From contig CM075996.1 in assembly GCA_038087875.1 (NCBI GenBank), positions 6,326,001 to 6,390,000 on the forward strand: a DNA stretch of 64,000 nucleotides. Direction: 5' to 3'. Source of the DNA: Malacoraja senta (lineage: Eukaryota). A program made the translations under genes and the position numbers. This document shows, one piece after another, positions 18,870-59,026 of the stretch. The stretch's first letter is position 1, and every line of letters starts with the position of its first letter. The notes below the pieces were generated by a model. It did not search any database, was not told the origin of the DNA, and saw only the letters and a program-made list of their open reading frames with translations.

Positions 18870-18978
18870 GTTACAGTGCTGTTGTCGCTGAGAACAGTGT
18901 GGAACATCAAAATAGCTACAGTCTTCCCTCCAGTACAAACAGTCAGCCGAGTGGCACCACACCCATCCAGAATAATGT
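18870..18978 (+). CDS. CNOT3: CNOT3-like linker exon (SYSAVVAENS...IQNNV)
   Basis: TTTTCAG acceptor, GTGAGT donor at 18979; SYSAVVA resembles CNOT3 SYSSVVA; phases fit both neighbours. Confidence 0.87.
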
Positions 18979-19012
18979 GTGAGTATCTCAGTCTGTTATA
19001 TCCTTCAGTGGT

Positions 19013-19220
19013 TAGACACAAAGTGCTGGAGTAACAGGACAGGCAGCGTCTCTGGATAGAAAGAATGGGTGACGTTTTGCGTCGAATCATCTCAAGAAGG
19101 GTCTCGACCTGAAATGTCATCCATTCCTCCTATCCGGAGATGCTGCCTGTCCCGCTGAGTTACTCCAGCGTTTTGAGTCTATCTTCGGTGTAAACTGGAA
19201 TCTGCAGTTCCCTCCTCCAC
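19013..19220. mobile_element. Palindromic PLE-terminus mini-element, subfamily A
   Basis: Inverted arms; 15-bp flanking direct repeat ATATCC(T/G)TCAGTGGT (18998-19012 / 19221-19235). Other copies ~25828-26050, 28524-28697, 28955-29125, 31110-31295, 34875-35085, 56482-56698. Confidence 0.75.
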
Positions 19221-20424: not shown

Positions 20425-20581
20425 GAAAGAGACGGTCAGTGTGTCTGTAGCTATCACGACAAGCATCATCCCTGTACTGGCAGCCAGTCAGGTCAACACA
20501 CAAGCCTCCAACTTTTCTGATCTTAAACCAACACCAGCCATGATGAATGGACCCTTGCCGTTTGTCTCACAGGAGCTGAAG
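20425..20581 (+). CDS. CNOT3: CNOT3-like linker exon (KETVSVSV...MMNGPLPFVSQELK)
   Basis: ACACAG acceptor, GTACGT donor; open frame; C-terminal NGP..F...E.K as in CNOT3; phase 2 in, 0 out. Confidence 0.85.
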
Positions 20582-22516
20582 GTACGTACAGATTAAAATG
20601 GGCGGGTGAAGTGCTTCCACCTTCGTCCCTCTCTTGCTGTCCTCAAACACTGCAGTTCAACAGTATACAGTTGGTGTCTATTGGTTACTGGAATTCTGAC
20701 AAACCCATGTCTGCTTTAAAGTGGCTTTTGTGAGGCAATATTGATGCCTGTTTCTTACAGTAATTTATACAAGGCACAACACAGCACTTCTGAGTTTAAT
20801 TTTGTACGTCCACCCTCAACGAATGCCTATATCACATTGTTCATGTTGATGTCATCCTGCTATGTGCAGTCCTGTTACTACTTGTTGGTGCAACTGACTT
20901 TGATAATTGGACCCTTGGGGTGATTCAGGAATTAGTCAATGAGTACACCTCTCCAGCAGTAGCCAGTACCATTAGAAGGTACAATATCTCCATTTTGTCT
21001 TGTCTGGCAGCTTCCTTCATCTCTATCACAATGGTGCAAAATAATTGAAGGTGAAGATTAATGGTTTTATGTGAGACAATTCGTGTTCGCATTTGGCTGA
21101 TGCATACGAGGTCAGGCCTGTCTGTTTGCAAAGCTGTTCTTTTAATTTCAAACTGATCGCACTGTTTGGTAGCTACATTAGAATAGATATTCTGAAGATT
21201 GGTTCTTGTTTTGAATTAATGTTGCTACCCACACCTAATTTTATAACTCCTGAATAATTGCAGTAAACTTGCGAGAAGCATAAGAACTAAATCTTTAAAT
21301 TTGATTTTGGTCCCAAAACAACCCACAAAATATTGTTACAATTTCAGATAATTACAATGAATGTCATAGTTTTGTTTACTGGTACTTATGCAAAGATTTT
21401 TTTTCTTCTTGAAGTCATTGTTCATGTTACAGGCAATTGTAGATGGCTTACTTGCGCGACAAAATACAAATATCGTTCAAATATAGTAGAGGGGACAAGT
21501 GTCATTATTTTGTTTGGGGACTTCCAAAGCTGGTTTGTCTGTTATTACAAATGTCTCAAGTACCAAGCAGGGTGCAGTGCCTTGGGGTCTGTTATTTTGA
21601 AGTATAATCCTGATGTACTGAGGACTTGTTGTGCCAATGAGATGGTGTTCTAGCTAAGCCTTTGAAGCATGAAACATTACAGTTTTACCGTATCTGTGAG
21701 GACTGCAAATAAAAACCTGACACAGGTTTTTGTTTGAAAGGCTAAGGACTGTTGGTTAGAATGTTCTGGTTGGTTACGTCACAATCTGTACTGCTCAGAG
21801 GGTTGCAGTTTGAAGGTAAACTCCAGTTCATGCCCAACTTACTGCTGCTTCAAATTGGGTTTTTCCCAGTGTCTATCACAGCTTTTTGCAGCAAAGGCTT
21901 GATGGTTTGTCTCATCTTTTCCATGGGAAAATTAGTGGGGTTTTCAATTGAATGTGTGATCCTTTTAATTTAACCTTTTACTGTCCATCCTGCCCTACTC
22001 TTGTTTTCGATGTTCTATCTTGCTCACTTCATTATTTGTGAGAATTCCTAAGTACTCTTAGATCACAGAGTTCTTGAAATGTATTCTTTATCTCGGCAAG
22101 AAGTGATGTTATTGCCAAGGTTTGGCATTTAGCTTTGGAGCAGTTACTTTATTTCGGCATTCATTAAAAGCTATTATCGCCAATTTATTAGTGCGTTCAC
22201 CGGAGTCAAAGTTTTGGGTTTAACTTTATGTACAGAGCTCGGTTGTATAATCTAGGCTGACATTCTATTGGGGTGTTGTTGCAGATCACATTGAACCAAT
22301 GACTATCATCTGGGCATACAAGGCCTTGGAGCACCTCTCAAAGCCCAGGGGAATCCTAGTTGTTACCCCTCCCTCAAAGTGCAGCTCTGTTGTATCTGAA
22401 CTGCTCTTGATGGGATCTCGGTGTGTGCTGAAAGCCATTTAGATGATGCATTGTATGCAAGGCAAATGTTTGGGATGTCTTTGTATTAACATTGTTTGGT
22501 TTTTCTATACATGCAG

Positions 22517-22619
22517 CCGGCTCCAGAGACACTCAGCTCTTTAAAAAGTATGGCAGAACGAGCAGCTGTGAGTGCAGGATTGGAAGAGCAAGTCCAGTCT
22601 TTGCATTTGAACGAGAGAG
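22517..22619 (+). CDS. CNOT3: CNOT3-like exon ([34 protein letters not shown])
   Basis: TGCAG acceptor, GTGAGT donor; [12 protein letters not shown] identical to recalled CNOT3. Confidence 0.93.
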
Positions 22620-24282
22620 GTGAGTGCCTGCAGACCTATATTCCTGTAATAGAAACATAGAAACATAGGAAATAGGTGCAGGAGGAGGCAATTCAGCACT
22701 TCGAGCCAGCACCGCCATTCATTGTGATCATGGATGAACGTCCCCAATCAATAACCCGTGCCTGCCTTCTCCCCATAATGGTGTTTGTAGAACTCCAGAT
22801 GTACTTTGCAACAGTCGTATGGGAATATGGGTGCCAAAATCTTTCATTCAATGGTAAACTATTAAGAGTTTAGTTTAGTGTAGAGGTACGGTGCAGAAAC
22901 ATGCCCTTTGGCCCACCGAGTTTGCACCGACCAGCAATCCCCGATTTATGCCACAAGTTGACTGGCGCTTTTCAGGCTCGGGGATGGTTTTGCAGTAATC
23001 GACCTCTTCACCGGGGACAGAGGTTGAAAATTGACCCGAGTTTCATCCCTAATCACTGACCAGTCATTACTGGTAAACCCGCTGAATATCCAGGACCTAG
23101 AAATGTTTGAGGAGGAAACCAAAGTTGTAGTGCGTGTGTAAAACCTTGATCAAGTCAGTGATGGAGTGTTCAGAGCACGAGAAAACTGAGGGAAGCAATG
23201 TTTGCTATGCATTAGGTCGGTCTTCCAGAGAAGATTCCAATGATATCCGCACCCGGTCTACTTGGTTGCCCTTAGATGACACCTTGTGACTTGTACAGCC
23301 CTCCTGATGCTATCTATATTTGAAAGAAGTAATGTTCACCTTAAACTCACTGAACTGTCAACTGGATCAAAGCAGCCTTTATTAATCTGAACAAATGGGA
23401 CTCAAGGGTTGTAATTGCTTTATTATTCACATGTGTACCAAGATAGTGAAAAGCTTTTGTTTGTGTGCAGTCCAATTAAATCAGATAATACTATGAATTA
23501 ATATAATAGAGCCATACACAAATATACACCAGGTAGAGCAATGAGAAAAATACCAAGGGGCTGGATGTAGTTTTCAGCGTTGTAACGGTACAGTTTGAGG
23601 AAAAAGTCTAATGCCAATTAGGTAGGTTGGACAATTGGGACTATACCCTAGTTTATGGGAGAACCATTCGGAATTCTGATACCATAGGGGAACAAGCTGT
23701 TCCTGAGTTTGGTGGTACATGCTTTGTACCCTCTCAACAGGAGCGGGGAGAAGAGGGAGTGTTCGGTGTGAAAAAGTTATGTGATGACTTTTATGTTGGC
23801 TGCTTTCGTGAGGCAGTGTGACAGTGTGGAGGGGAGTTTTGTCTGTGTAATGGACTGGGATACAGCCGCACCTAAGCAATTTCTTGTGGTCTTGGGCAGA
23901 GCTGTTCCAGAACTGGGATTAAAAGGAGGCAAATGGCGCAGAACGCTACAGCCAAGAGGCTCAAATGAAATAGTTGCCCACTTCTGTTGCAACTGTTCCA
24001 ATACCTTATGTGTTGGAAAATCCTCCAATTATTTTACTGAAAGTTTCATGTTGACCAGATAATAGGCCAGATAATCACCTAGCACCCAAATATATGGGGG
24101 GAAATTCCAGCTGAGGTAACCTCGTACATTTGGGCATCACCAGCGTTAAATAAAATTGCAATGTGAGGTATTCCTGATCATTGATCATTCCTGATGCATG
24201 CAGAGCGCAAGGGTTTCATCCTTCACAAGAGGGCAGACTTGGATCTAAATCTCATTGAACTTACTCATACTTTAGACTTTAA

Positions 24283-24478
24283 AGGGCTTGTCCCACTCAC
24301 GCAATTTTTTCGGAGACTTGCCGGCACCCGTCATTGTCACAGCAGGTCGCCGAAAATTTTCAACATGTTGAAAATCCAGCGGCGACCAGAAAAAGGTAGT
24401 CTCTTTGGGCAACTACTCACGACCATACAGTAGTCACCCCGCGACTCCCGAGAAAATCTCGTAAGTGGGACAAGCCCT
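24283..24478. mobile_element. 196-bp MITE with TTAA flanks
   Basis: TIR AGGGCTTGTCCCACT(C/T)ACG at both ends; TTAA at 24279-24282 and 24479-24482. Confidence 0.8.
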
Positions 24479-25423
24479 TTAAGGTAGTGTGGAAACGGGC
24501 GCTTCGGCCCACCGAGTCAGCGCAGACCAGCGATCACCCCGCACACTAGCATTATTCTACACACTGGGGATATTTTACAATTTTACTGATGTCAATTAAT
24601 CTACAACCCTGGACGTCTTTGGAATGTGGGAAACCCAGGTGGTCACAGGGAGAATGTACATACTCCATTCAGACAGTCTCTAGTGCAGTAAGGCAGCAAC
24701 TTTACTGTTACACCACTGTACTGCCCTGTGCCTGCTGTCTTTCATTTCCAGGGCATACTTCATGTTATTTAGAGTCTGCTGGTCCATATGATGAACAATG
24801 CCTTGTGCAGTGGTGAAGTTTTGTCTGATGCTATCCACTGTTGTTCAGTTGGTCTGGCTGCACGGTTAACCTTCGTTCAGTCCGCACTCTATTCATCTGC
24901 CTCTGGTACATGAGGCTTGAGCTCTCGTACTCAAAGCTCACCATGGAGTGGAGATCTGACCATTGATGGTCAGCAGGGATTGTTCTGGCCTGCATTCATT
25001 CTAAATCATCCTGAAGGAGGGTCGGGTAATACTGATACAATGGAATGAGTAAGATTAATTAATGGGCGGCGCAGCGGTAGAGTTGCTGCCTTACAGCGCC
25101 AGAGACCCGGGTTTGATCCTGATTATCGGTGCTGTCTGTACAGAGATTGTACGTTCTCCCTCTGACAGCGTGGGTTTTCACTGGGTGCTGCGGTTTCCTC
25201 CCACACTCCAAACACGTATTCTTTTGTAGGTTAATTGGCTTAGGTAAATATTGTAAATTGTCCCCAGTGTATAGGGTAGTATTAATGTACGGGGATTTGC
25301 TGGCCGGCACAGACTCGGTGGGCCGAAGGGCCTCTTTCCACGCTGCATCTCTAAACTAAACTTTAAAAAATAATAAATGTTGTGGGTTCTGTTTAATATG
25401 CGTTGTGTTTTTTTGTTCTCTAG

Positions 25424-25622
25424 TTCTCCTCACCACCCCATCATCGCAGAGCAACTCGATGACATCTACTGTTCCGCAAACAACAGAGGTTCATCTTCAG
25501 CCTATGCTGGGTGTGTGCCCACTCAGCCCAGTGCATCTATCCAAGGACCAAGAATACCAGCTGCACATGGTGGAATCAGCGTGGCTACACATGCCTCACC
25601 CGTCGGACTCTGAGAGAATACG
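25424..25622 (+). CDS. CNOT3: CNOT3-like exon, NOT1-anchor/connector region (...LGVCPL...[15 protein letters not shown])
   Basis: TTCTCTAG acceptor, GTCAGT donor; LGVCPL and [12 protein letters not shown] motifs. Confidence 0.95.
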
Positions 25623-26489
25623 GTCAGTAGTCACTCGTGGGCAGGATGATAAATTCGGGGGGGAAATGAGAAGATGAATTTCCCACATAGAAATAATGAA
25701 TACGGGTTCAAACAGTGAACTGTACATTTTGTATTTTGAATCTCAACAAATCCATTTCCCAGCAATACTAAAATACTACGAAAACTGAAAATACCTCAGC
25801 CAGCCACTGGGCAGCATATGTGCAGGAAGGAACTGCAGATGCTGGTTTAAAGCGAAGATAGACACAAAATGCTGCAGTAACGCAGCGGGACAGGCAGCAT
25901 CTCTGGAGAGAAGGAATGAGTGACGTTTCGGGTCGAGACCTTTCTGAAGAAGACCCTCCATCCAGAAGGAATGGGTGACGTTTCGGGTCGAGACCCGAAA
26001 CATCACCCATTCCATCTCTCCAGAGATGCTGCCTGTCCTACTGAGTTACTGGAAAGCATATTACCTTTTGGGCTTTAATCTCAAATCACATTTATGAAAT
26101 TAGATTTCTTTCATTAATAGCGTACAAAGAAACCACTTAAATATTCTTGGTTGCACAGTAAACCTAAAGCCTGATTATGTCAGTAAAACAACTTTAGACA
26201 ACCAGAAATCCTGCTATATGTGTTCGGTTTATAAAATAAACGTTGACTTGTTCAACAAATTAAGTCAGAGCTGGGAATAATGTTGGTGAAGCTGTTCTAT
26301 TGTTCCAGTGGGCAGGTTTAACTTGAGTGCTACCTCAACCAAGTTACATGGCCCATTAAGCTGTAGCACATTTGATTTTGTGGATAAAAATATTATGGAT
26401 TTTCTATTTTCTCCAATGGGCTAGCAAGGCCGAGAGACAGTATTTTAAGTATGTTGCCGCAGATTGATGTGATGTGGGAGAGATAAGAT

Positions 26490-27345
26490 AAGACAAGATA
26501 AGACTTTATTAATCCCCTTATTCAGGGGAAATTAAGATGTCCTTGCAGCACACTAATAAAAATACAACATAGTGTTCAAAAAGAAGTTCAACACAAAAAC
26601 ATCCCCCCACAATGGTTCCCACTGTGGGGGAAGGCACAAAGTCCAGTCCCCATCCTCATGTCCACCCAGAGTCGGGCCCACTGAGGCCTCCACAGTCCCG
26701 CCACGGCGCCCGATATTCTCGCCCAGGCTCCGGGATGTACCGTTCAGCGTCGCAGCTGGCCGCTCCACAGAACCGCAGCTCCACGATGTTACCATCGGCG
26801 GTCCCAGCATACTGGAGTCCCAGCGTGGCGACCCAGGAAAGGCATCGCCTGCTCCACGACAGCGCTCCAGCGCTGCACCGCCGCCAAAGCCGATGTTCTG
26901 CGCCGCCGCCAAAGCCGGTGTTCTGGCCAGGTCCCCTTGGGGAAACGTCTGCGCAGCCGCCAAAGCCGGTGTTCTGGCCAGGTCCCCTCAGGGAAACGTC
27001 TGCGCAGCCGCCAAAGCCGGTGTTCTGGCCAGGTCCCCTCAGGGAAACGTCTGCGCCGCCGCCAAAGCCGATGTTCTGGCCAGGTCCCCCAGGGAAACGC
27101 CGCTCCAGGACCCGCTGGTAGGCCGCAAGGACAGGTCGAAGGCGCTGCTCGGAGGAAGACAACCCCTCCGACCAGGTAGGGACTCGAAAAACAGTTTCCC
27201 CCTTCCCCCCCCACCACCCCCCACACATAAAAAGATTAGGCCCCCTGACTACACACTAAACGTACTAAAAATAATAAAAAAGAAGGGAAAAAGACGGACA
27301 GCTGCAGGACAGGCAGCCGTTCAGGACAGCGCCTCCTCCGGAAGG
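26490..27345 (-). mobile_element. GC-rich non-autonomous retroposon-like insertion
   Basis: On -, ends AATAAAG + (TCTTA)n tail; CpG-rich body contrasts with AT-rich intron; family unassigned. Confidence 0.5.
26898..27099. repeat. 51-bp tandem repeat, ~4 copies
   Basis: Unit CTGCGC(C/A)GCCGCCAAAGCCG(G/A)TGTTCTGGCCAGGTCCCC...GGGAAACGT starting at 26898, 26949, 27000, 27051. Confidence 0.95.
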
Positions 27346-27880
27346 CGCTGGAGGTGATTTGATTTTAAGCGTTGCACTTGAATAGAGATGTATGAACATG
27401 GTGTGTGTGTGTATGTTGTGGAATCTCGGCTATTAAGGATGTTTGATGTAATTTATTTTGCCTCCTTGTGTTTGTAATTGACTTCATATTTTTGACCACA
27501 CTGATCAGCTGTAGACAAAATGGAGAGCGTTTGCTTTTTGCGGAGTTGAAGTTGGCTGGGAGTTTACTGCTGTCGGTCTTGTGTGACTTGATGGTTTATT
27601 TTTGTGTTCCCACAGACATCGTGCAGGCTACAGAGAGGCGTTATAGACCACCCCTGTTTAATTTAACAATGCACCCCCAACTGTTGACCTTGCCATTGAT
27701 ACCAGTATTTTGATAGTGTCACTCGGTTTAGTCTGTGGTTACAGCATTGTCCAAATCCATTGATTTTTTTTTGTGAGCTAGAATGGTATTTTACTAGTTG
27801 TACATTAGCATTGGTTAGTCAATTCCAGGATTTCTCATTGTTTCTGAAGAAAATGTTTGATTTTTTTCCCCCCACTGCAG

Positions 27881-28013
27881 ACACTACCTCCCTCGTAATC
27901 CATGCCCCACGCCGCCTTATCACCATCAGATACCCCCTGTCCATTCGGACACACTGGAGTTCTACCAACGATTGTCCACAGAAACACTCTTCTTTATTTT
28001 CTACTACCTAGAG
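27881..28013 (+). CDS. CNOT3: CNOT3-like exon, start of NOT box ([16 protein letters not shown]...[19 protein letters not shown])
   Basis: CTGCAG acceptor, GTGAGT donor; near-identical to the CNOT3 NOT-box peptide. Confidence 0.96.
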
Positions 28014-31000
28014 GTGAGTATTCATGGATTTGTGGAGTTGTGCTGCATGGAAACTTCGGTCCAAATCATCCATGCCGATAAAGATTTAAACTAATCCCAT
28101 TTAGCCCATATTCATCTAAGCCTGTTGTATCCCTGTATGTGCCCAAATAATATTTGCATGTTATAATTATACCTCCCTCTGGCGCCTTTTTCAATAGACA
28201 ATAGGTGCACAAGTCTGCCATTCGGCCCTTCGAGCCAGCACTGCCATTCGTTGTGATCATGGCTGATCATCCACACTCAATATCCCGTTCCTGCCTTTTC
28301 CCCATATCCCCTGACTCTGCTATCTTTAAGAACTCTATCCAACGCTCTCTTGAAAGCATACAGAGAATTGGCCTACACTGCCTTCTGAGGCAGAGAATTC
28401 CACAGATTCACAACCCTCTGTGTGGAAAAGTTGTACGTACTCGCTCCTCCCCGCGTGGAAATACTTGACTTCAGATCCCTGTTAATCCTTTGCCCTAGTT
28501 CTGAGCAGTACAACTATTCTGTAGGGAGCAACTGCAGATGCTGGTTTAAACCGAAGATGGACACAAAAAGCTGGAGTAACTCAGTGGGTCAGGCGGCATC
28601 TCTGTCTGAAGAAGGGTCTCAACCCGCAATGTCACCAATTCCTTTTCTCCAGAGATGCTGCCAGAACCGCTGAGTTACTCCAGCTTTTTGTGTCTGTCAA
28701 CCATTCTGTAACAAGGCAATGAAGTGTTCAGGTTTCAATTTGCAAACGTGCTTTGGATTCATACTTGGAATAAAATGGAAATTAGGTTCAGTTTTAACAG
28801 CAGGTCGAAGCAGTTCAATGCTGCCCATTTATTAGAGCTTCACATTGTCCTTGGGATCACCTTTACCAGAACTTTGCACTGGATTTGTATCCTTGCACTG
28901 GGCCGTTAATCCAATCTGTGGGCCCCACCACATAGTGGGCTCCAGATTAAAGTGTGTAGGAAGCAACTGAAGATGCTGGTTTAAACCAAAGACAGACATA
29001 AAGCTGGAGTAACTCAGCGGGACAGGCAGCATCTCTGGAGAGGAACGGATGACGTTTCGGGTCGAGAAGAAGGGTCTCGACCGAAACAAAACCCATTCCT
29101 TCACTCCAAAGATGCTGCCTGACCAGATGAAAGTGCGTTTGTTTGGTCATTGCAAGGTGGGATGTAGTTCACCTGCCCGCACTCACCTAGCCTTGCGCGG
29201 GTAGAATGGGCGTTTTGGACCCGTGCACCTCCAAAATAAGTCTCCTCTTTTGAGAGGAGATAGGCATATGGGGAGAGAAAATTGTTAACACAGAAAGTAG
29301 GTGCAGGAATAGGCCATTTGACCCTTCGAGCCAGCACCGCCATTCAATAAGATCATGGCTGATCATCCAGAATCCTTACCCTGTTCCTGCTTTCCCCCCC
29401 ACATCCCTTATGGGGAATAAAATAAAAGGTTCTATCTCCACAAGATTATTCCTGGCTTGGAACGTGTGTGTGCCAAGTACATGTCACACAGCTGTTCCTT
29501 TGAGTAGCATTCCAGGCTTCGATGGTCTGCCAGGTGGAATTAATCTGAATGGCTTGCCTTGTTTCTTGTGGTCCCCTGTAATGAAGTGTGTACTATAAAT
29601 TAGGAAAAGGCAGTGTAAACATCTGGTGTGCCTGCACTATTTACTTGCTCGGTACGTCCCCTTGGCCACTGCTCAGAGTGCTTCAAGATTAAGCATTAGT
29701 GCAGGGGATTCTGCTTAAACGTGAAAGATTCCGGCAATGCCAGGGATCTTTGGGTCGTGCATCATGGAAGCAGGCCCTTCGGCCCATTGCATCCGTGCCG
29801 ACAGTCAAGTTGTCATCTGCACTCTTGTTTTCCCCATCATTACCCTGGAAATATCTTGCAGGCTGTGACTGTTCAGCCTGGGTGATGTTGGGGATAGTAC
29901 CACGTTGCATCCTTGGACCTATTGTTCTGGGAATAATTTACAGCGAGCAACAGTTCGGCAATGGCTGAACTCGGAGGAGCTCCACAGGCTCTGACTGACC
30001 TGACACTTTTAATGTTTACTGAGTTGTAATGTGCTCTATTCTTGCAATGGCTTAATTATGAAAAGCAAATTCCCCAATTGTTCATGAAAGATTTCCGTTC
30101 TTGCAAATGGATAATGTTTTTCCTCCAATGGCCTATGTAAACACAGCAACTGAGCTCTCGTGCCTGAAAAATCGAGTGTTATTCTGAATTTATACTGAGG
30201 TAGTTGTGTAGTCAGAAACTGTTGTTGGACTCCAGGCGATTTTGGGCGGGGGTGAGGGGAACAAGCCTTAGTTAGCAGTCGCTTTCCAGTAATCCCCACT
30301 GAGGTGGCACAGTGTAATCATAACCCCATACATGAAAAAACCCAGCTCCAGAGCATAGGAGGATGAGGGGTGACCTTATAGAGGTGTACACAATTGTGAA
30401 TAGATTGTTTAAACGTAGTGTCTTTTGCCCAGGGTAATAGAGATCCAGAGGGCTTATGTTTTAAGGTGGGGGCAGGAGTGAAGATTTAATCGGAACCTGA
30501 GGGGTAACTTTTTTACACAAAGGGTGCTGGGTATCAGAAATGAGCTGCCAGAGCCAGTTAAGGCAAGTACTATCGCAACGTTTAAGAAACATTAAGGCAG
30601 GTCCCTGGATAGGATAGGTTGAGGGATATAGGCCAAACGCAGGTGGGTGGGGCTAGTGTAGATGGGACATGTTGGTCGGTGTGGACAAGTTGGCTTAGTT
30701 TAGAGGCTGTATGGACTCTCTGACTCCTGCACTTTGCCAGTGAAGTGTGCAATTATATCCCAGAGGGGATTAAGACCTTGTAAAATAGTTAAGAAAAGGG
30801 AAGCTGGTGTTTTTCTTAGCTGACACGATTGCGGAGAGATTCACTAGGTTTCCAAACGTACAAAGCATTTTGTTGATAAAATAGGGTGAAGCTGAATCCT
30901 ATAGCAGGCTTGGTAACCAGATAACAGATTTACAGAAATTAGCAAAATAATGGGAGAGGAAATGTTGTTTAACAGTGAGGTCTGGTATTCTGGGATGCAT

Positions 31001-31413
31001 TGCTGGAAAGGGAAGTGGACACAGATTGTGTCAATAAGTGAATAGGATTGATGCTTAAAATGTGATGGGCTGTTGGGAAAGAGTAGTGGGAATGGAACAA
31101 ATTAGAGATTGTGTAGGAAGGGACTGCAGATGCCGGTTTACACTGAAGATAGACACAACTGGAGTAGCTCAGCGGGTCAGGCAGCATCTCTGGAGAGAAG
31201 GAATGGGTGGCGTTTCGGGTCGTCCGAAACATCACCCATTCCTTCTCTCCAGAGATGCTGCCTGTCCCGCTGAGTTACTCCAGCATTTTGTGCCTAAATC
31301 GGAGCTTGTGGTCGAAGAGCTAAGGTGGCTGCTTTTACTGTGCACTTCTGCAAACTGTTCTTGCTCTGGAGTCTGATGCTTTTTTTTCCTTTTTTTCCCC
31401 TCCTCTTTACCAG

Positions 31414-31538
31414 GGGACCAAGTCCAGTATTTGGCTGCTAAAGCTTTGAAGAAACAGTCCTGGAGGTTCCACACCAAGTACATGATGTGGTTCCAGAGAC
31501 ACGAAGAGCCAAAAACAATCACAGACGAATATGAACAG
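31414..31538 (+). CDS. CNOT3: CNOT3-like NOT-box exon ([41 protein letters not shown]), 1 nt short as assembled
   Basis: Strong pyrimidine tract + CCAG, GTACAG donor; conserved peptide in frame from 31425; only 11 nt where 12 are needed before it. Confidence 0.9.
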
Positions 31539-33424
31539 GTACAGATCCGACCGGCATTCTCAGTCTGTCAATAAAACTTAGTTGATTATCCTTTGTAGAC
31601 TAGGAGACCTGGGATCGCTCTGCATTAGTGTTTCAAGTGCCCTCGGGACTCGGTGCCAGCCTGGCACACTTTCCAGACTATTGGCTGTTACTCCTATTAA
31701 TTACCCGATACAATTTCAATTCACTTGTTTAAAGATGTCACATGTTTGCATAACAACATTCTCATTGAATTAGAGTTTGAAGGGAGTGTGGGCAATGGGT
31801 GCCTGGCGAGCTGGACTCCTAGCTGCCACGTCTTCCAAAAGATCAGTGGATTACAAGAATTTTACTGTTAACTGTAGCCTTAATCGACACATGTGAAGGA
31901 AACTGCCTGGCTTTGCAGCAGCTTTGCACTCTTGTGTTGCTGCACTTATCCATAACCTGCAAACTAGTTCAGAAAGGCTGGGGTCATAGATGCAATTAGG
32001 GTCGGGGAGGTATAATAGGTGGTAAAATTAGTAGCTTTGGATGGGGTGGATAGGAATTGGATCCATCACCACAAAAAATAGTAAAGGACATATTTTACCG
32101 GAGGGGGGGGGGGGGGGAATAAGAGTTGAGTTGCTGCAGGAATGTACTGTCTGAAAGTTTGGCGGAAGTAAATTTCAAGTTCCAAAAGTGAATTGGGGAG
32201 AAATGCTCTTGGAAAAGATATCCAGGGTAGTGAGCAGAGATAGGGTGGCACGGTGGCGCAGCGGTAGAGTTGCTGCCTTACAGCGCTTGCAGTGCCAGAG
32301 ACGCGGGTTCAAACCTGACTACGGGTGCTGTCTGTATGTAGTTTGTACGTTCTCCCCGTGACCGCATGGGTTTTCTCCGTGATCTCTGGTTTCCTCCCAC
32401 ACTCCAAAGATGTACAGGTTTGTAGGTTAATTGGCTTGGTATAAGTGTAAAGTGCTAATGTGCGGCATTCGCAGGTTGGCGCGGACTCGGTGGACCGAAT
32501 GGTCTGTTTCCGCGCTGTATCTCTAAACTACACTAAATATAGGGTAGATGCAAGCTGTTAGAATAGGCAGTGGTGTGAAGGGCTGAATGATTGTCTCCTG
32601 GTTCTGTAAGGTTCTGACTTGTACACTGTGCAATTTCTTACTAAATGGTGTTGACTTGTGTGAGTTGGATTGCAGACTGGGGCTCTGGCTGAGGGCTTAA
32701 GGCTTGGCTGCTTTTGCATTTAGTCTACTGTGACCTAAAGGTAGGTTTTGTACCTTCTGGTTGGGCACTGCAGTAGCCTCTGAGTTCAGGTAGCGACCTG
32801 GTATGTCCAAAGCTGCCCGATGTAAACTTTAGTTCCCCATCACAATGTCATCTTCACATTTTTTTTTAATCTGCATTTTTCCTGATACTGTAAACTATTT
32901 GAGGCTAATATGTTATGGTATTAATTCAATCCTCCTCCTACCTTTATCTCTCCTGTTCCCACTGCACTTAGAGTCTCTTTTACATCAATTGGGCTGGAGT
33001 TTACTTACTCAGCACCTAGCCTCTCATTATACTCTCAGTCTCAAGCAATATAGGTAAGTGATGTTGGCAGTTTCGCGCTGTGAAGGACAATGGAGAGGGA
33101 AAAGAGCAGATGCAAGTAGATTGTGCAGGTGGGTATGGCTTCTAGAGTATTGCCTATTAGGTGAGGCCCATTGCTTTTGTGTGTGCATTGAGTCTGATTT
33201 ACTCAATGTATCAGGTGGCACTGACTTGCCTTGCACTGTCTAAAGCCCAACCGTGGTATTATTGATAGCACTGTTTGGCAGTGGAATAATCAGCGCTCTT
33301 TGGAGGAAAATAAATGAGGAGTTGTTAAAAACAAAGCATTGAGTTGCAAACTGACAATTAAAATTGTAGGCACTGATTGTTGTTACCCAGGATGAAAGCC
33401 GTGTGAAGCAGTGTTTGCGTCTAA

Positions 33425-33547
<123 letters not shown>

Positions 33548-33840
33548 CCAGGAAGTATACACCCAGTGCCAGGGTGAGGTATGGCCCCCCGCGCTACTGA
33601 TTGAACCTCAGTAACCCAGTATCGGGCTCACAGTCTGAACACACCGGTGTTCTTGGAAGAGAGCTTTCGTTTAGAGACCTTGTACAATTTTGAGGAAAAA
33701 AAAAAGAAGAAAGAAATCAAAAAATGTTGTACATCATGTATTTTGTTCTAACCTGTGCATAAGATATTGTATTGGAAAATACTTTGTCAGGAATCTGTAC
33801 AGTTCTGCGTTTAAAAAGCAGTTAGTGCTTGTATGAAAAA

Positions 33841-33846
33841 AATAAA
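33841..33846 (+). terminator. Probable polyadenylation signal of the CNOT3-like gene
   Basis: AATAAA ~295 nt after the stop, preceded by several TGTA and followed by a U/GU-rich tract. Confidence 0.65.
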
Positions 33847-35328: not shown

Positions 35329-36364
35329 AGGGACCCATAACCTTCAGCACAGCAGACACATAGGAACACTGCCATCTGCAGGTTCCCCTCCAAACTGCAC
35401 ACAGCCTTGACCAAATTACAACTAAATTTCTTCATTGAAGATAGACTCAAAGTGCTGGAGTAACTCGGGGACAGGCACCATCTCTGGGGAGAATGGTGAG
35501 GTGATGTTTTGGGTCAAGACCCTTCTGCCTGTCGCACTGAATGGCACCAGTGTTTTGTGTCCATCTTCGGTGTAAACCAGCATCTGCAGTGCCTTCCTAT
35601 CCATTTCCTCATTTCTGGGACAAAACTTTGGAACATTACCACCAATTATACCCTGAGAATACCTTCAGGATGGATAAGAGCGATTCAAAATGTCTCTCCA
35701 CTACTTGGGCAATTAGAGATGGGAAAATAAATGCTAGATCTGCCAGCTGCAATCAACTTGTTAGTGTAGGAAGGAACTGCAGGTGCTGGTTAATACCGGA
35801 GATACGCAGCAATGCTGAAGTAACTCAGCAGGTCAGGCAGCAGCTCTGGAGAAAAGAATAGGTGCTGTTTTGGGTCAGAATCCTTCAGACTGAAAGATAG
35901 CAGGGAAACTAGAGGCTAGAACAAATCAGAGCTGGCAACAGGAAGAGTGGAGTCCAGGAGTTACTTGAAATTGGAGAAATCAACGTTCATACTGCCTGGT
36001 TGTAAGCTGCCCAAGTGAAATATGAGGTGCTGTTCCTCCAGTTTGCATGTGGCCTCACACTGACAGTGGAGGAAGCCTAGGACAGAAAGGTCAGTTTGAG
36101 AAGGGAAGTTAACAAGTTTGACAACCGGGAGGTCTCGTAGGCCAAAGGTGGACTTTTAGTAACTATGCCATGGAAACTCGCCAGGTGTAGATGGGTTGCT
36201 GATCTGCCTGCACACTCTTCTGTACAGTTGTTGTTCTCCTTGCCTGTACCTGTGCCCTGTGCTGATGCATGGTGGTTGAGATTGGTGTGGTAAATAAGTC
36301 TTCATAAGAAAATGTTCTTACCTATTCAATCTAGCAACCTATCATAATTTGAGCATTTAACAGT

Positions 36365-36392
36365 CTGAAGAAGGGTCTCGACCCGAAACGTC
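36365..36392 (+). ncRNA. Minimal type-I hammerhead ribozyme-like motif in a PLE terminus
   Basis: CUGAAGA-A-GGGUC(UC)GACCC-GAAA-CGUC; identical cores at 46455-46482 and 56564-56591. Activity not shown. Confidence 0.6.
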
Positions 36393-36971
36393 ACCCATTC
36401 CTTCTCTCCAGAGAATGCTGCCTGTCCCGCTGAGTTATTCCAGCACTGTCTAACGCATCCCATGCCTGATTGTAACTAAATTGTCATATTTTCTCCTGTA
36501 ATGTAGATACCGCAGGTGAAGTAGTCGTTTGTCTATCGTTATTTTTCCCTATGAGTTCCTGGCAAGGCCAATTCAGAGAGCGGTGAAGAGTTAACCACAT
36601 TCCTGTGGGATTGTAATTACAACACGTCGGACTGGAGCGGATGTTGAATTCCTGAACGCTGGTGAACTACGCTGCCTTCAAGGCCGTTACGGGGCACTCA
36701 AAACCGAATGAAATCTTTAACTGTTTAATTATGGCCTGACTTGCGTTTTATATAAACATGCTATTTTTTATTCTTGTCCTCTGCTCTTATTTAACACCAA
36801 ATGCTGTTTGCTTTATAACTAATTTGCAGTTAAAGAATAAGCCTTGTTTTGGATATCTTAACGTAAAATGTCACCTTTAACCATGACGAGTTGTGCCTGC
36901 CCCGGGGCGGCACAGTGGCGCAGCGGTGGAGTTGTGGCCTTGCGAGACCCAGGTTCGATCCTGACTACGGG

Positions 36972-37379: not shown

Positions 37380-38154
37380 CTACGGGTGCAATCTGTGGAG
37401 TTTGCAGGTCTCCCTGTGACCAAATATAAAAAAGATACAACAAACAAAACAAACCCCCCCCCCCCTTTATTCCAGGGACGTGCAGATTTGTGGGTTAATA
37501 GGCTTCTGTAAATTGTTCCTAGTGTGTAGGACAGTACTAGTGTATGGATGTTCGCTGGTCGGCGCAGGACAAAGGGCCTGTCTCCGCGCTGTATCTCTAA
37601 ACTAAACACTTTGTGTGTGTTGTGAGAAACTTATTGTGCTTCCTGAATCAAACAATCGACATAATGCAGGCTAGTGTTCACTACCTGTAAGGCAGCAACT
37701 CTACCGCTGTGCCACCGTGCCGCCCTATAGCTCTGTATAAAGCTCCAAATGAACAGGTACTAAGGAACTATGTTTTAATCCCCCACTTGCAGCTCTGGTG
37801 TGCTTGAAAACGTCAAGCAGGGTGATATTTTTGGACATCTCCTCCTGCTCCGAGATTCCATGATGCTGAGAGAGAAAGAGTGAGGTTTAGCCACGTGTGA
37901 GATCTTCCCAAGATAGACACACAAATCTGGAGGTAACTCAGCGGGTCAGGCTGCATCTCTGGAGGAAAGGAATAGGTGACGTTTCGGGTGGGCAGAACTA
38001 AACAGGGCTGGAAACAGATAACTGGAAGGGTGGAGTCCATAATGCCCCAGTGTAATGCCCCTGGGGAAGATGTGCTAACAACAGGGATACAACAGTAGAA
38101 CTACTAGGACAACTAGGGTGGGAGATGGAGGGAGGGGGGGGGGGGGGGGAGTTA

Positions 38155-38295
38155 AAATGTTTGGCGACTGAGCGATTGTGTAGGCCAAGGTGGACTGAGC
38201 GGAGGTGTTCAGCGAAACAATCGCCAAGTCAGCGCTTGGTCTCGCCGATATATAGGAGCCCGCACCAGGAGCACCAGATACAGTAGACGAGCTTG
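38155..38295 (-). mobile_element. Penelope-like GIY-YIG endonuclease fragment
   Basis: Minus-strand translation SWCGLLYIGETKR*LGDCFAEHLRSV contains the YIG motif; other pieces at ~35960-36150(-) and 46150-46545(+). Confidence 0.78.
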
Positions 38296-45300: not shown

Positions 45301-48300
45301 TCAGCGGGTCAGTCAGCATCTCTGGAGAAAAGGAATAGGGAATATTTCTGGTCAGGACCCTTCTTTGGACTAAGGGGCCCAACCCAAAATGTTACCTGTG
45401 CCTTTACTCCAGAGATGCTGCCTGAGCCGCTGAGTTCCTCCGGCATTTTGTGCCTATTTTCGGTGTAAACCAGCATCTGCAGTTCATATGATCAGCCATG
45501 ATCATATTGAATGGCGGTGCAGGCTCGAAGGGCCGAATGGCCTACTCCTGCACCTATTTTCTATGTATCTATGTATCTATGTTCCTTCCTACACATATCT
45601 GATCTTATAGAGGTGTACAAGATCATGAAAGGAATAGATCAGGTAGACGCACAGAGTCTCTTGCCCAGAGTAGGGGAATCAAGAACCAGAGGACATAGGT
45701 TTGTTTAAGGTGAGGGGGGGGGAAAGATTTAAAAGGAACCTGAGGGGTAACTTTTTTACGCAAAGGGTGGTGGGTGTATGGAATGAGCCGCCGGAGGAGG
45801 TAGTTGAGGCAGGTTCTATTGCAATGTTTAAGAAACATTTAGGCAGGTACATGGATAGGACAGGTTTAGAGGAATACGGGCCAAACGTGGGCAGGTGAGA
45901 CTAGTGTAGATGGGACATGTTGGCCGGTGCGGGCAAGTTGGGCTGAAGGGCCTGTTTCCACACTGTATCACTCTAACACTGTATCAATGATTCTATGTCA
46001 GAGCAGGGCCACCTCTGCTCGACGCACAGACCAAGCTGCTGGGGAAACTGTCTGAGTTGCTGAGTTTCTCCAGTTGCACGTCTGCCACCCCAGATGCCAG
46101 CGACTGCAGTCTCTCATTTGTCTCCATTTCCACCTCGCGACACATTCCAGCGCAGCGCAGGCACCTCATACTTCGCTTGGGCAGCTTACAACCCAGCGTT
46201 ACGAATATTGATTTCTCTACCTTCAAGTGGACCCTGCATCCCCTCTCGCTAGTTGTCGCACTAGTTTCTCTGTGGTCCTGTTGAGTTTCTTTCTCTACAT
46301 AACTCGTTATCATCCAGCCCACAGCCAACAATGGACCATTGTGGGCTCCACTTTTCCTTGATCATCTTTACTATTTTGCATACCTTTCATTCATTTGTTC
46401 TACATCTCTCTACACCATCTATATCTGTCGTTTCCCTCTCTCCTGACTCTCAGTCTGAAGAAGGGTCTCGACCCGAAACGTCACCCACCACTTCTCTCCA
46501 GAGATGCTGCCTGACCCGCTGAGTTACTCCAGCACTTTGTGTCATACTTTCCTTCCTCTCCCAATTGACTGCATATCCGCGGAGATTGCCCTGAGCTTCC
46601 GTTACGCTCCGTCGCAGAGTCACTGTTGTGGATAAACCTGTTGACTGCAACGTCACTCTTGAGAGATGTTTCCAAAACAACACAGCCCTGCCTGCCAGGC
46701 ACAGCCTCCAGCTCTAGACTCACCTGCTGCTCTACACATAGTAAACACCTCCTGGTCCCAACCTGTTGTCAGGGTCACTGGCTCTCACTCAACACCTCCC
46801 GCAAGACTTCACAGACGGCTGTGGAGGCCAAGTCCATGGTTATTTTTAAGGCAGATATAGATTGGTTGTTGATCAGTACGGGTATCAGGGGTTATGGGGG
46901 GGAAGGCAGGAGAATGGGGTTAGGAGGGAGAGATAGATCAGGCTTGATTGAATGGCGGAGTAGACTTGATAGGCCGAATGGCCTAATTCTGCTCCTATCA
47001 TGTACAAACTGCACCACATCACCTCAGCTCCCAGCCACCAAGTTACTCTGCTTGATGGCAAAATCGTCAATCTTCTTAGACTCGTAGAGTCATACAGCGC
47101 GGAAACAGGCCCTTTGGCCCAATTTGCCCACACGACCTACAAGCCGCATCTACACTAGTCCCACCTGCCCGTCTTTGGCCCAGATCCTTCTAAGCCTGTC
47201 CTATCCATGTATCTGTCTAATTGCTGCTTAAGCATTGGGATAGTCCCTGCCTCAACGACCTCCTCTGGCAGCTCGTTCTATACGCCCACCACCCTTTGTG
47301 TAAAAAAAGTTACTCCTCAGGCTCCTATTAAATTGTTCCCCCCCTCACCTTAAACCTATGCCCTCTGGTTCTCGATTTCCCCTACTCTGGGTAAGAGACT
47401 CTGTGTGTCTACCCGATCTATTCCTCTCATGATTTTGTACACCTCTAGTGATGGTGTGCGGGGATTGCTGGTCAGTGGTTACTCGGTGGGCCGAAGGGCC
47501 TGTTTCCGGGTTGTATCTCTAAACTAAACTAAACTAAACATCCTTCCGATAATGCAAAACTGAACACAGAGGTGTACAAACTCTAAATATGGCCTCACCA
47601 ACGTCTTATATAACTTCAACATGACCTCCCAACTTCTATACTCAATATGCTGATGAATTTCTGTGTTGTATCTCTCTGTGACTATGAGATGCATTTGAGC
47701 AAATTGAAGAAATACTTTATCCAAGTGGGGACTTGACTGGTTTGCTTCGTTGACAAGGAAGTTTCTTTGTGTCAGTGTAAGCTGAGAATGGCCTGAGGAG
47801 GGGTGGTATGAGAAAGGGTGTGAGTGAGGCTTTTGTGGTGAATCAATTATCTTTGCTCCAAGCCTCCTCCAGCCTAGGCCGGGCCCGTGATGAAACTTAG
47901 TGGTTTGGGTGAGAGAATGATTAATAGGAGCAGAATTGGGCCATTCGGCCCATCAAGCCTACTCCGCCATTCAAAGGCGGCTAATCCATCTCTCCCTCCT
48001 AACCCCATTCTCCTGCCTTCTCCCCATAAACCCTTGATGCCCGTGCTAATATCCTGCTCCCTCAGAGCAAGAGTGGGCACGGTGATGGAGCCAGTAACTG
48101 AAGGCGCAGTGTTGGCTGCGTCCGATGTAAGATCAGGTACAAAGTGAGGACACGAGATTATTTAATATCTCAAACTACTGCAGTGAATCCTCAAGGGAGG
48201 CCCAGTGGGCACTTTGAACCATTTCCGCACTTGCTGTTAATCTGGGCCAACCTGAATGATAGCTCTTCCTTCGTTTCGAACGTTGTTTTTTGAAATGTAT

Positions 48301-49340: not shown

Positions 49341-52119
49341 ACTCATGCCAAGCTAATTATCCTACAATTCTGTGCACCTTTGGAATGTGGGAGGAAACCG
49401 GAGATCTTGGAGAAAACCCACGCAAGTCACAGGGAGAACGTACAAACTCCATATAGACAGCACCCGTGGTCGGGATCGAACCCGGGTCTTTGGCGCTGTA
49501 AAGCAGCAACTCTACCGCTGCGCCACCATGCCGCTTTAATCGGACATTACTGGACTTTATCTGGCACTAAAAGTTATTCCTTTTATCATTTATCTGTACA
49601 CTGTGGACGGCTCGATTGTAATCATGTATAATTCTTTCCGCTGACTGGTTAGCACACAACAAAAAGCTTTTCACTGTACCTTGGTACATGAGTCAATAAA
49701 CTAAACAAAACTACTGATCTTAAGCACCCGGGCCTCTGCTCCTTCTCTGCGCCAGTTCCCCATTCCCCTCTGTTCTCTGATCTTTCGACAATGTACCTGC
49801 TTCGTTCAGTATCCCCAGTGCTTTGGGCTTCACAAACCTTCAGGCCTGCAAATCCCAGAGACTCGGCATGCATGGAGAAAGGGTGCATTTGTTTGCTTGA
49901 TCGTTCGACTGCTGAGCCCTCTCTCCGCCTGTGCGGTGCCCGCAGGCAAGGATCAATCTGGGAATAGGACTTCAACCCAAACGCTAAAGCCACCAAAGCA
50001 CAGCGACCTCCTTCCTCCAAGCCCTGCATCTCCTGCACCCCAGCTAGATATCGCAGCCAAGACCAAAGATGCTCTATAATCTTTGGCCAAGACAGAGACC
50101 AGAACAAGAGGCAGGCTCTTCCTGAAACCGACATGGGCGGTCACAGTGGCACAGCGGTAGAGTTCCCGCCTTACAGCGCTTGCAGCACCGGAGACCCCGG
50201 TTCGATCCCGACTACTGGTGCTTGTCTGTACGGAGTTTGTATCTTCTCCCCTTGACCGTGTGGGTTTTCTCTGAGATCTTCGGTTTCCTCCCACAAAGAC
50301 GTGCGGGTATGTAGGTTAATTGGCTTGGTGTCTGTGTAAATTGTCCCTAGTGTGTGTAGGACAGTGTTAATATGCGGGGATAGCTGGTCAGTGCAGACTC
50401 GATGGGCCGAAGGGCCTATTTCCGCGCTGTATCTCTAAGCTAAACTAAACTAAACTCATCTGACATTTCATAGAAACATAGAAAATAGGTGCAAGAGTGG
50501 GCCATTCGGCCCTTCGAGCCAGTACCACCATTCAATATGATCGTGGCTGATCATACCCCGTTCCTGCTTTCTCCCCATATCCCTTGACTCCGTTAGCCCT
50601 CGGAGCTAAATCTAACTCTCTCTTGAAAACATCCAGTGAATTGGCCTCCACTGCCTTCTGTGGGGCTCTGAATCCTTTCCTTCACTCCCCCTTCGTCGAT
50701 CACCGTGCGAGGTTAAGGCAACAGCTCCTCAACATGACACGGCTTCCTTAACTTTGGTGCCGCTGTGGGGTTGGGATGTGTCGTGGACTTCTGTGTTTGT
50801 TCTTTTTTGTAAATCCTGATTTTATTTATTTATTTATCTATTTATTATTTATTTATTTATTATTTTTGTAACATGACTGTAAGGAAAATCCATTTCGTTG
50901 TCTCTTATGAGCTAATGACAATAAATTGAATACAAAAAATACAACAAATATATATATCCAGTGGGACTTTATAGCAGCGATACAGTTGAAACCCCAAACC
51001 ATTGATTGTACTCGCAAGCCGGCTGCCTGCCCCTTTTCCAGGGATTACGTCCGCGCCGGGTGGCACGAGGGAACGGCCTCACGCTGCCCACGGGCGCCCT
51101 GGGGGGTTTCGGGGGACCGCTGGGCACCGCGGGGGGGATGGAATGCATCCTCAATAAGGATGGGGAAATATAGAGTTGCACTTTAGTTTATTCTGTATTT
51201 GAGGATATTTGCTTTACTCTGCATTATGGTGGTGGGTTTGTTTGTATCCTTGTACTTACTGTACATATCATTTTTGTAAATAATTGATTAAAATGGTTAA
51301 GATGCGAATGGCGATTAAACCATCGTTAATTATCAACCAGGCTACTGTTGAATCCGCCAGTGATGAAACCACAACCTTCCCCACAGAGGAGAGGGCATCA
51401 ATGGACCTCGCTGTAACTGGGCGACTGGGCAACTTAAAACAGACCTCGGCTCTAATCAACATTTGTGGGGGGGGGGGAGGGTTACCGTGGTGACCAGATT
51501 TAGTGATCAAAGGCAGGTTAATACCAAAATAAACAGACGAGACTCAGTGGTCTGTGACCGTGTGGAATGATTAACTGAGAATATAAATGAGGCGCGTGAT
51601 GCGTGATGCACAATTTGGAAATGGATGTGTCATGGGCTCAGGCGGGCCCTTCTCTCTCCTGCCCCACTAACACGGCGCTCTGGCTATTTCCCTTCACCCA
51701 CCTGTAGCCAGTACTCGCCCCACCGCACTCAATGAAAGGCCTGGATAGAGTGGATGTGGAGAGGATGTTTCTGCTGGTGGGAGGGTCTAGGACCAGAGGT
51801 CGCAGCCTCAGAATTAAAGGGCGCTCTTTTAGAAAGGAGGTGAGCAGGGACTTCTTTAGTCAGAGGGTGGTGAATCTGTGGAACTCATTGCCACAGATGG
51901 CCGTGGAGGCCAACCAGTGGATAGTTTTAAGGCAGGTTGTTGATTAGAACGGGTGTCAAGGGTTTATGGGGAGAAGGCAGGAAAATGGGATTAGGTGGCA
52001 GAGACCCAGCCATGATTGAATGGCGGAGTAGACTCGATGGGCCAAATGGCCTGATTCTATGACTTGTGAACTTGTACAAGCTCGATAGAGTTTTCTGTGA
52101 CATGCCGAATCTCCTCAAA

Positions 52120-53145
52120 CAAAGGGTTTCCTCATTCTTTAGGAATGAGGGTTCCCCTCTCCCATCATTGATGAGGCCCTCACTCGTGTCTCCTCGGTAC
52201 CCCACAGCTCCGCCCTTGCTCCCCCTCCCCAGAGACAGAGTCCCCCTAGTCCTTTCCTTCCACCCCATCAGTCATTACATACAACACATAATCCTCCGAC
52301 ATTTTCGCCACCTCCAACGGGATCCCACCACTAGTCACATTTTCCCATCTCCACCCCTTTCCGTCTTCCGCAGAGACCGTTCCCTCTGCAATTCCCTGGT
52401 TAACTCATCCCTTCCCACCCAAACCACCCCCTCCCCAGGTACCTTCCCCTGCAGCTGCAGAGATGCAACACCTGTCCCTATACCCCTTCCCTCGACCCTG
52501 TCCAGGTACCCCAACAGTCCTTTCAGGTTAGGCAGAGGTTCACTTGCACCTCCTCCAACCTCATCCACTGTATCCATTGTTCAAGATGTGGACTCTCATA
52601 CAGCGACGAGACCAAACGTAGACTGGGCGATCGTTTCGCTGAACACCTTCGCTCAGTCCGCCTGAACCTACCTGATCTCCCGGTTGCCAAACACTTTAAT
52701 TCTCCTTCCCATTCCCACACTGACCTTTCTGTCCTTGGCCTCTTAAAGAGTGAGGCTAAACGCAAATTGGAGGAACATATTTTCCTTGGGCGTGCTATGA
52801 ATATTGATTTCTCTAACATCAAGTAACCCCAGCATTCCCTTTCTCTCTCTCTATCCCTCCCCCATCCAAGTCGCACCAGCTTCTCGTTCACACCCAACAA
52901 ACAGCTAACATGGCCTGTTTCCTTTATCGTTACTTTTTTGCATATCTTTCATTCATTGTCCTTTATCTCTCCACATCATCGTCTATATCTCTCCTTTCCC
53001 TTTAACCTAACTAGTCTGAAGAAGGGTCTCGACCCGAACCGTCACCCATTCCTTCTCTCCAGAGATGCTGCCTGTCCCGCTGAGTTACTCCAGCATTTTG
53101 TGTCTATCTTCGGTTTAAATCAGCATCTGCAGTTCCTTCCACCAC
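52120..53145 (+). mobile_element. Penelope-like element 3' half: Cys-rich linker, degenerate GIY-YIG endonuclease, 3' UTR and hammerhead-bearing terminus
   Basis: Peptides RVPLVLSFHP...FRRDRSL, GTFPC, FTCTSSNLIHCIHCSRCG..Y..ETKRRLGDRFAEH...PVAKHFN, MNIDFS; frameshifted; followed by CTGAAGAAGGGTCTCGACCCGAAC at 53016. Confidence 0.85.
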
Positions 53146-59007: not shown

Positions 59008-59026
59008 TTATTAAGTGGGTACTTAC

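Follow-up and report, generated by a model that had tools for sequence, protein, structure and literature searches.

The 28-nucleotide motif repeated through the window (the whole 64-kb stretch of skate DNA that was analysed) is very probably the minimal type-I hammerhead of the terminal repeat (pLTR) of a Neptune-like Penelope element (PLE), and its dispersed copies would be by-products of retrotransposition. The assignment to the minimal type-I class, which an earlier note on this DNA had proposed, is supported at the sequence level by the sense orientation of the motif, its position in the pLTR 3' of the ORF, and a core that is conserved beyond its flanks. Most copies are broken or folded away and are therefore better read as copying fossils than as live RNA scissors. 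Coordinates of the features are collected in Table 1.

Table 1. Features of the window discussed in the text (strand: +, forward; -, reverse;., both arms of a pair)
Feature	Position	Strand	Basis or remark
Minimal hammerhead core	36365..36392	+	consensus of PMC4209133 Fig S3
Core C3-A9; extra A	36365-36371; 36372	+	motif 36365
Stem II, tetraloop between	36373-36376/36381-36384	+	motif 36365
G12-A14; self-complementary ACGU; C17	36385-36387; 36388-36391; 36392	+	motif 36365
Predicted cut	3' of 36392	+	motif 36365
Helix I, 2 bp only	36363-36364 with 36393-36394	+	following pair is A.C
Solo, tail-less short PLE terminus	36362..36450	+	starts at AGT three bases 5' of C3
Near-intact motif, G10.1-U11.1 wobble	60473..60500	-	only descriptor match sense within an inferred intron
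Longer PLE 3' fragment: ORF end 46153-46242, pLTR, perfect motif 46455-46482	46153..46549	+	tblastn, alignment
Head-to-head pair, perfect motif 56564-56591 (+) inside long hairpin	56482..56689	.	
Frameshifted PLE ORF 3' end: post-RT region, Cys linker, degenerate GIY-YIG nuclease	52087..52826	+	
Stop of PLE ORF remnant	52824-52826	+	
Pyrimidine-rich pLTR, ORF stop to motif	52827..53012	+	C3 lies 190 nt past the stop
Reference unit: motif 53016-53043 (A15.1>C), body to ~53110, optional ~30-40 bp tail	53013..53140	+	
Diverged PLE fragment: ORF end 36131-35964, then degenerate unit 35891-35769	35769..36131	-	
PLE fragment: nuclease remnant 38294-38151, then partial unit 37989-37907	37907..38294	-	
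Symmetric head-to-head pair, centred on base just 5' of core	12026..12082	.	CNOT3 intron
CNOT3	5446..33846	+	Pfam PF04065, PF04153
CNOT3 Not3 exon; NOT-box exons	from 5446; ~27881, ~31390, ~33449	+	
CNOT3 stop; AATAAA; further AATAAA	33545-33547; near 33841; near 35726	+	
Class C GPCR gene	57197..64000	-	Pfam 7tm_3 E 5.5e-6, below cut-off
Class C GPCR 7TM exon; AATAAA	above 63550; near 57202	-	
Class C GPCR inferred last coding exon	~57820-57704	-	sequence only

The exact 28-mer was found at each of the three places where the earlier note had read an intact motif (36365, 46455 and 56564, all on the forward strand). With up to 3 mismatches allowed, 17 matches were recovered over both strands of the window and 0 in 100 dinucleotide shuffles, and the loose pattern CTGAWGA-N1-30-GAAACGTC gave 6 matches against 0.01 expected. 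The whole core was covered by 24 matches, 3 of them perfect, a high number for 64 kb in comparison with the genome totals of ~4,000 for coelacanth and ~9,000 for Xenopus reported in PMC4209133. Three forward-strand copies that had been described as near-intact lie where they were placed but do not bear out that description, each carrying a core or stem lesion: G10.1>U at 12055, A15.1>C at 53016, and two stem II pairs at 61614. The reverse-strand copies given as ~15485, 34972, 48503 and 56936 were present within a few bases, at 15482 (palindrome lost), 34971 (G5>C), 48503 (reading CUGAUGA; A15.1>U) and 56935 (U16.1>C and one stem pair). The best near-intact copy, on the reverse strand at 60473-60500, was absent from the earlier list.

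Compared with the consensus of Cervera and de la Pena 2014 (PMC4209133), NNN CUGANGAH G...C GAAA-N-palindrome-NU H NNN, the window motif agrees everywhere but in the length of helix I. The 15 conserved positions occur in order (CUGANGA ... GAAA-N-N-U-H); as in the published motifs, CUGANGA is followed by one extra base, G10.1-C11.1 is present (here the commonest pair, in 25 of 40 copies), GAAA and NUH are in place, and 15.2/16.2 are palindromic without a helix III. The extra A after A9 (32 of 32 copies) and the self-complementary ACGU in place of stem III were both seen as the earlier note had described them; its short stem II is also there, as 4 bp (GGGU/ACCC) closed by a tetraloop and not as 5 bp with a 2-nt loop. 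This helix II lies within the class range of 3-7 bp with a loop of 3-10 nt, and variation between subfamilies sits in the loop while the stem is kept. The window copies further resemble the motifs of PMC4209133 in lying in a pLTR 3' of the ORF, in being mostly solo and in forming opposite-strand pairs; they differ in having pyrimidine-rich flanks where the published ones are AU-rich.

Helix I consists of two pairs, U-A and G-C, and is also 2 bp in the long copies at 46455 and 53016, so it is a family trait and not a truncation artefact, and the caution that only ~2 bp of stem I are visible was well placed. The RNAmotif descriptor of PMC4209133 specifies helix I of 3-7 bp, and no descriptor match in the window reaches 3 bp. 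The same paper accepts 2-bp forms from D. virilis, Culex and Oikopleura, and the short helix, with its U-A pair, therefore hurts the descriptor fit more than the class fit. Our own descriptor, which accepted helix I of at least 1 bp, was passed by five loci of the window (36365, 46455, 56564 and 53401 on the forward strand and 60500 on the reverse strand), all with a 2-bp helix I; at 2 bp it was passed by nothing in 30 shuffles.

The motif heads a repeat unit of ~100-130 bp, a piece of the terminal repeat, for which a profile built from window copies found 58 matches in 64 kb (~0.9 units/kb) and 0 in three shuffles. A tblastn search with one homologue located four ORF remnants, at 52087-52823 and 46153-46242 on the forward strand and at 36131-35964 and 38294-38151 on the reverse strand. 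A unit follows each remnant on the same strand, which places the motif in the pLTR on its sense strand. The 200 nt upstream of the solo unit at 36362 are common to no other window copy, and stem II is broken in both motifs of the symmetric pair at 12026.

For the ORF remnant at 52087-52826, the nearest proteins among 18 matches are from Leucoraja erinacea and Rhinoraja longicauda, followed by rays and sharks; these relatives include P0017, an 892-aa protein with RT and GIY-YIG. Pfam searches with the window's own degenerate ORF frames gave no match. According to Craig et al. 2021 (PMC8557442), Neptune and Nematis are marked by a C-terminal GIY-YIG that has CCHH residues and is preceded by a CX2-5CxxC linker. 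Both features were found here; the linker is visible across the frameshift at ~52450-52470 and is intact in the aligned homologues. We call the element Neptune-like on the strength of this Cys linker; the window contains no RT core. A subfamily with a UUCG loop, H17=U and 1.1=G (10018-10196, 44685-44866 and 6269-6344) occurs in the window only truncated within the core. Four annotated chondrichthyan proteins (P0001, P0002, P0007 and P0006) fuse a host domain to a PLE nuclease fragment, and the C-terminal peptide of P0006 resembles the motif read in frame, a hint of the motif in a shark.

Greater conservation of the core than of its flanks, on which the earlier note had staked its reading, was observed: non-CpG core positions match the consensus in 327 of 343 cells, against 220/284 at free positions and 2522/2965 in the 3' flank, counted over copies that are not independent. 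Alignment edges bias the count for the 5' half of the core; the internal half, which is free of this bias, gave 180/190 against 1706/1932 (p=0.005). At no non-CpG core position is a variant common to at least 4 copies. Variants that common fall on the loop bases, on H17 (C>U in 9, never G; n=48), and on positions 1.1 and 11.4, where A>G retains U-G pairs. Given this dependence between copies, and two blocks of the flank (model positions 50-59 and 67-78) in which conservation is about as high as in the core, the conservation evidence is moderate. G12 is part of a CpG and has become A in 12 of 46 copies, a loss not below that of other CpG G (p=0.21). These patterns fit selection on master elements and neutral decay once copies have inserted.

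In metagenomes, 14 loci were chosen by protein similarity alone, 6 of which had less than 240 nt of 3' flank. A sense-strand minimal hammerhead was found 3' of the ORF in 2 of the 14 (L001 and L003), with distances past the protein match of 413 and 1397 nt in the two loci; antisense strands and shuffles gave 0, and, where the 3' flank was longer (8 loci), the other 6 had no motif. Stems and palindromes in L001 and L003 differ in sequence and keep their pairing (15.1-16.1 palindrome AAUU in L001, AUAU in L003, ACGU in the window), and the helix I of L003 is also 2 bp, with a different, compensated sequence. A further locus, L016, was picked by pattern scan of genome contigs (2 loci found) and has the motif ~100 nt behind a PLE ORF 48% identical to its whale-shark homologue, with a helix I of 4 bp. 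Sense placement in the pLTR 3' of an RT/GIY-YIG ORF was found at the four window loci and at L001, L003 and L016. In an 8-row alignment both-sided changes occurred in 9 of 10 pairs and slid controls were far lower, a pair count that is illustrative only because the L001 row is misaligned and L016 was chosen by pattern. Both pattern scans of viral contigs returned 0 matches. The animal-type PLE ORF and hammerhead at L016:1501-2583 lie in a bacterial genome bin and are probably eukaryotic DNA. At L015:1501-1529, in a Treponema bin, CUGAUGA-stem-GAAAC-GUU occurs with one helix I pair and no PLE ORF nearby, and is possibly another hammerhead type or a chance match.

The same evidence makes it scarcely credible that the motif resembles hammerheads by chance and belongs to some ordinary SINE or MITE-like repeat. 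Such a repeat would suit a unit that has no stable fold (z about 0), and the covariance-model check of the hammerhead reading came out negative: Rfam returned no hammerhead family above threshold and, with E up to 10, 22 matches without a hammerhead family among them, the best being spurious miRNA models on hairpins, which arise because inverted pairs of the unit fold back on each other. It would not explain the fixed place behind PLE ORFs at four window copies and three outside loci, the compensated pairs, or the empty descriptor background in the window shuffles, and ORF linkage together with covariation largely refutes it. An unlikely reading, though one with more on its side, is a vestigial ribozyme: in this lineage the motif would have lost cleavage and would serve the pLTR as a promoter, a protein-binding site or a template-switch element. 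Its helix I lies at the lower end of the length range and is less stable than the G-C helices of 2 bp listed in PMC4209133, the templates look uncut, hammerhead mutants of PAc insert normally with no RNA-seq reads ending at the site (PMC11167929), and Naiads spread without the motif (PMC8557442). Predicted folds point the same way: in its 89-nt context, stem II of the 36365 motif is ~1.5% paired, and the active form of its dimer is at -6.1 against -21.1 kcal/mol for the best, in a fold model that has no core tertiary contacts and was run with no known-active control alongside. An alternative pairing of the GGGU stem II strand with four bases past the cut site (36373-36396) is favoured in these folds; one subfamily changes A>G in both partner strands together, which could reflect a conserved off-state or two independent wobbles. 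Against loss of function, the changes common to subfamilies are ones that hammerheads tolerate (loop, H17 C>U, A>G at 1.1/11.4), and L003 has a 2-bp helix I of its own with a different, compensated sequence.

The window holds two convergent genes, CNOT3 and a class C GPCR gene that we take to be GPRC5-like. A third gene was sought in 33.9-57.2 kb and none was found in 150 of 171 frames of at least 55 aa, a search that small exons could escape. Two weak matches were rejected as a third gene: ALKBH8_N, in a frame that is presumably a LINE tail, and DUF5730, which was below the cut-off. A 71-nt candidate GPCR exon at 59027-59097 on the reverse strand has good splice signals and would put the inferred last exon in another frame; exon boundaries there would be uncertain or alternatively spliced. 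The three perfect motifs lie ~10 kb apart in the interval bounded by the poly(A) signals inferred for the two genes, on the strand opposite the GPCR gene, and are intergenic by the positions of these signals and the lack of a gene found between them. The motif at 36365 is sense to CNOT3, 2.5 kb beyond its first poly(A) signal. A complete motif was found in 0 of 11 sense matches in the CNOT3 region, and the earlier suggestion of potentially active motifs inside introns of the two genes does not hold. The wobble copy at 60473-60500 is sense in a GPCR intron, with its nearest same-strand partner half 15.7 kb off.

These placements bear on a further reading, that dispersed copies cut host pre-mRNA or read-through RNA, alone or paired, and so affect CNOT3 or the GPCR gene; we regard it as improbable. 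The density of the units would lend itself to this, read-through RNA is plausible at 36365, and head-to-tail unit joints, which public contigs place elsewhere in the genome, could supply dimers there. Complete motifs, however, amount to the five descriptor matches in 64 kb, and the perfect ones are widely spaced. On its own strand, the partner half closest to 36365 is 1.35 kb off and locked in a hairpin pair, and the CNOT3 introns hold no complete sense copy. Unit strand counts are unbiased (11+/11- in CNOT3, 3+/2- in the GPCR gene) and, with G12 unprotected, give no sign of selection for or against the copies. Likelier than cleavage, as an effect on the host, are the eight head-to-head unit pairs in CNOT3 introns (10017-31299), from which long RNA hairpins are expected that are possible ADAR or Dicer substrates. 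A CNOT3 intron also contains a GC-rich 51-bp tandem repeat in 4 copies (26873-27099), with long open frames on both strands, and just downstream of an inverted pair lies a 107-bp duplication of 98% identity (35123-35328) that is either recent or an assembly artefact.

How the copies were made can be read from their arrangement and breakpoints. Head-to-head arrangement was observed for 37 of the 58 unit matches, at 18 loci; exactly one arm is tailed (30-40 bp) in 14 of the 18 and both arms in none (0/18, p=0.013). This agrees with PMC8557442, which describes PLEs with an inverted copy and a tail on one side, and likewise with PAc (PMC11167929), where two internal RT start sites and two-strand extension are reported. 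The hairpin formed by the perfect motif at 56564 and its inverted partner has a predicted energy of -105.9 kcal/mol (z -15). The predicted cut site is crossed, with at least 8 nt on each side, by 47 of 58 matches, and 2 of 58 begin within 3 nt of it, so the template was uncut, or cut and rejoined (circular); the PAc template is likewise unprocessed RNA (PMC11167929). The upstream pLTR is kept in 7 of 58 matches. Among 51 short copies, 21 begin at one of the first four positions of the profile, 3-5 nt before C3 (short extensions judged by eye), which defines a hard 5' edge. Public contigs give the same picture: 371,479 of them (run X1) were aligned over 52700-53200, and their summed depth on the unit is at least 10x that on the upstream pLTR, depth not being copy number. 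Among the best-supported rows, loose ends are prominent at 53013, 53109-53111 and 53140, and opposite-strand and head-to-tail joints both use 53013, an edge that is sharpened by reference divergence just upstream. The loose end at 53056 is a subfamily difference.

We propose that in master-element RNA two pLTR motifs would pair, share a 4-bp helix III and cut after GUC. According to the literature, any cleavage by motifs of this class needs either a dimer, formed through the ACGU palindrome, or the element protein. Activity reported for the class is none for monomers and weak for dimers (PMC4209133); the PAc hammerhead showed no cleavage without protein (PMC11167929), and 1 of 9 Xenopus retrozyme dimers cleaved in Li et al. 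2026 (10.64898/2026.07.22.740005). Reverse transcription of uncut RNA would have two internal starts, which lie ~95 and ~130 nt downstream of the core and give products without and with the tail, and would usually end at or within the motif. Solos of 100-130 bp would result, as would head-to-head pairs in which one arm is tailed. After insertion, copies would decay neutrally and be mostly inactive in host transcripts.

The 5' edge may be an RNA 5' end at an initiator-like sequence, a 3' splice site, or a product of palindrome annealing. We tentatively put forward, as a possible though doubtful reading, that element RNA starts at the A three bases before C3, in an initiator-like TCA+1GT. RT primed at the 5'-proximal tail sites would then run off the RNA end, and 100-130 nt 'strong-stop'-like cDNA would integrate. 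The frequency with which short copies begin at this edge and the restart of public-contig head-to-tail joints at 53013 speak for it; against it, a YAG/T 3' splice site or annealing at the TCAG-T-CTGA palindrome would also give the edge. No GT-AG skip for an intron ending YAG/TCTGA was found among the best 15 of 768 joints, and no upstream exon is shared across the window solo copies. Annealing of cDNA at small palindromes in or before the core accounts for the symmetric pairs and not for solo copies. At four solo copies, the search for target-site duplications gave only 5-8 nt matches, away from the edges. The initiator consensus is YYANWYY, which L016 fits in the same register, without the AG there, and L001 and L003 do not fit. 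A DPE-like element was rejected as out of register with the putative start. In D. virilis, a 75-nt intron reaches up to helix I and transcription starts 46 nt upstream of this intron (PMC2377424), ~120 nt further upstream than the putative start in the window.

Among known systems, the PAc element (Poseidon, Anolis carolinensis; Frangieh et al. 2024, PMC11167929) also has a hammerhead shortly upstream of two RT starts that define the tail and also uses uncut RNA as substrate. It differs in belonging to the Poseidon clade, with an ORF that begins inside the hammerhead, where the window element has the Neptune/Nematis Cys linker, and PAc was shown to cut with protein, whereas the window motif is a putative ribozyme. 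The Neptune PLEs of PMC8557442 share the linker before a C-terminal GIY-YIG and an inverted, adjacent, 5'-truncated copy with a 30-40 bp tail at one end; unlike them, most window insertions retain no more than the terminal 100-130 bp and begin sharply, immediately 5' of the hammerhead. Non-LTR retrozymes (PMC7229834; 10.64898/2026.07.22.740005) are likewise short, non-coding, pLTR-derived units with a type-I hammerhead; they form tandem arrays with a complete motif per unit, whereas the window units are solo or inverted, and nowhere in the window do two or more consecutive units of a tandem array each carry a complete hammerhead.

The 56-motif alignment and Table S1 of PMC4209133 include no cartilaginous fish. 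A literature search on PLE hammerheads in sharks, skates and Chondrichthyes found no description of this family. Prior notice is possible in Lunse et al. 2017, which is reportedly on dimer cleavage, or among the hammerhead-bearing tandem repeats that Li et al. 2026 (10.64898/2026.07.22.740005) describe in one chondrichthyan genome. The hammerhead class is known and expected in any vertebrate PLE, and the motif alone is no surprise; the family is new to the literature found, possible prior notice aside, and stands out by its short helix I and informative breakpoints.

In the window, the breakpoints favour template RNA that had not been cut and an edge at a constant place immediately 5' of the core. 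Since a 2-bp helix I escapes the published descriptor, hammerhead counts in skates and rays may be far too low. An RNA start at the edge, if true, would be a single cause for the sharp 5' boundary, for the surplus of mini-copies and, with three upstream bases only, for the 2-bp helix I. On that reading, skate genomes would by extrapolation contain hammerhead-headed units on the order of ~10^5 intact and ~10^6 in all, undetected by the standard descriptor, and these would preserve as fossils how Penelope primes, runs off and joins strands. The role of the PLE hammerhead can be tested on a very large set of copies whose 5' and 3' breakpoints can be mapped.
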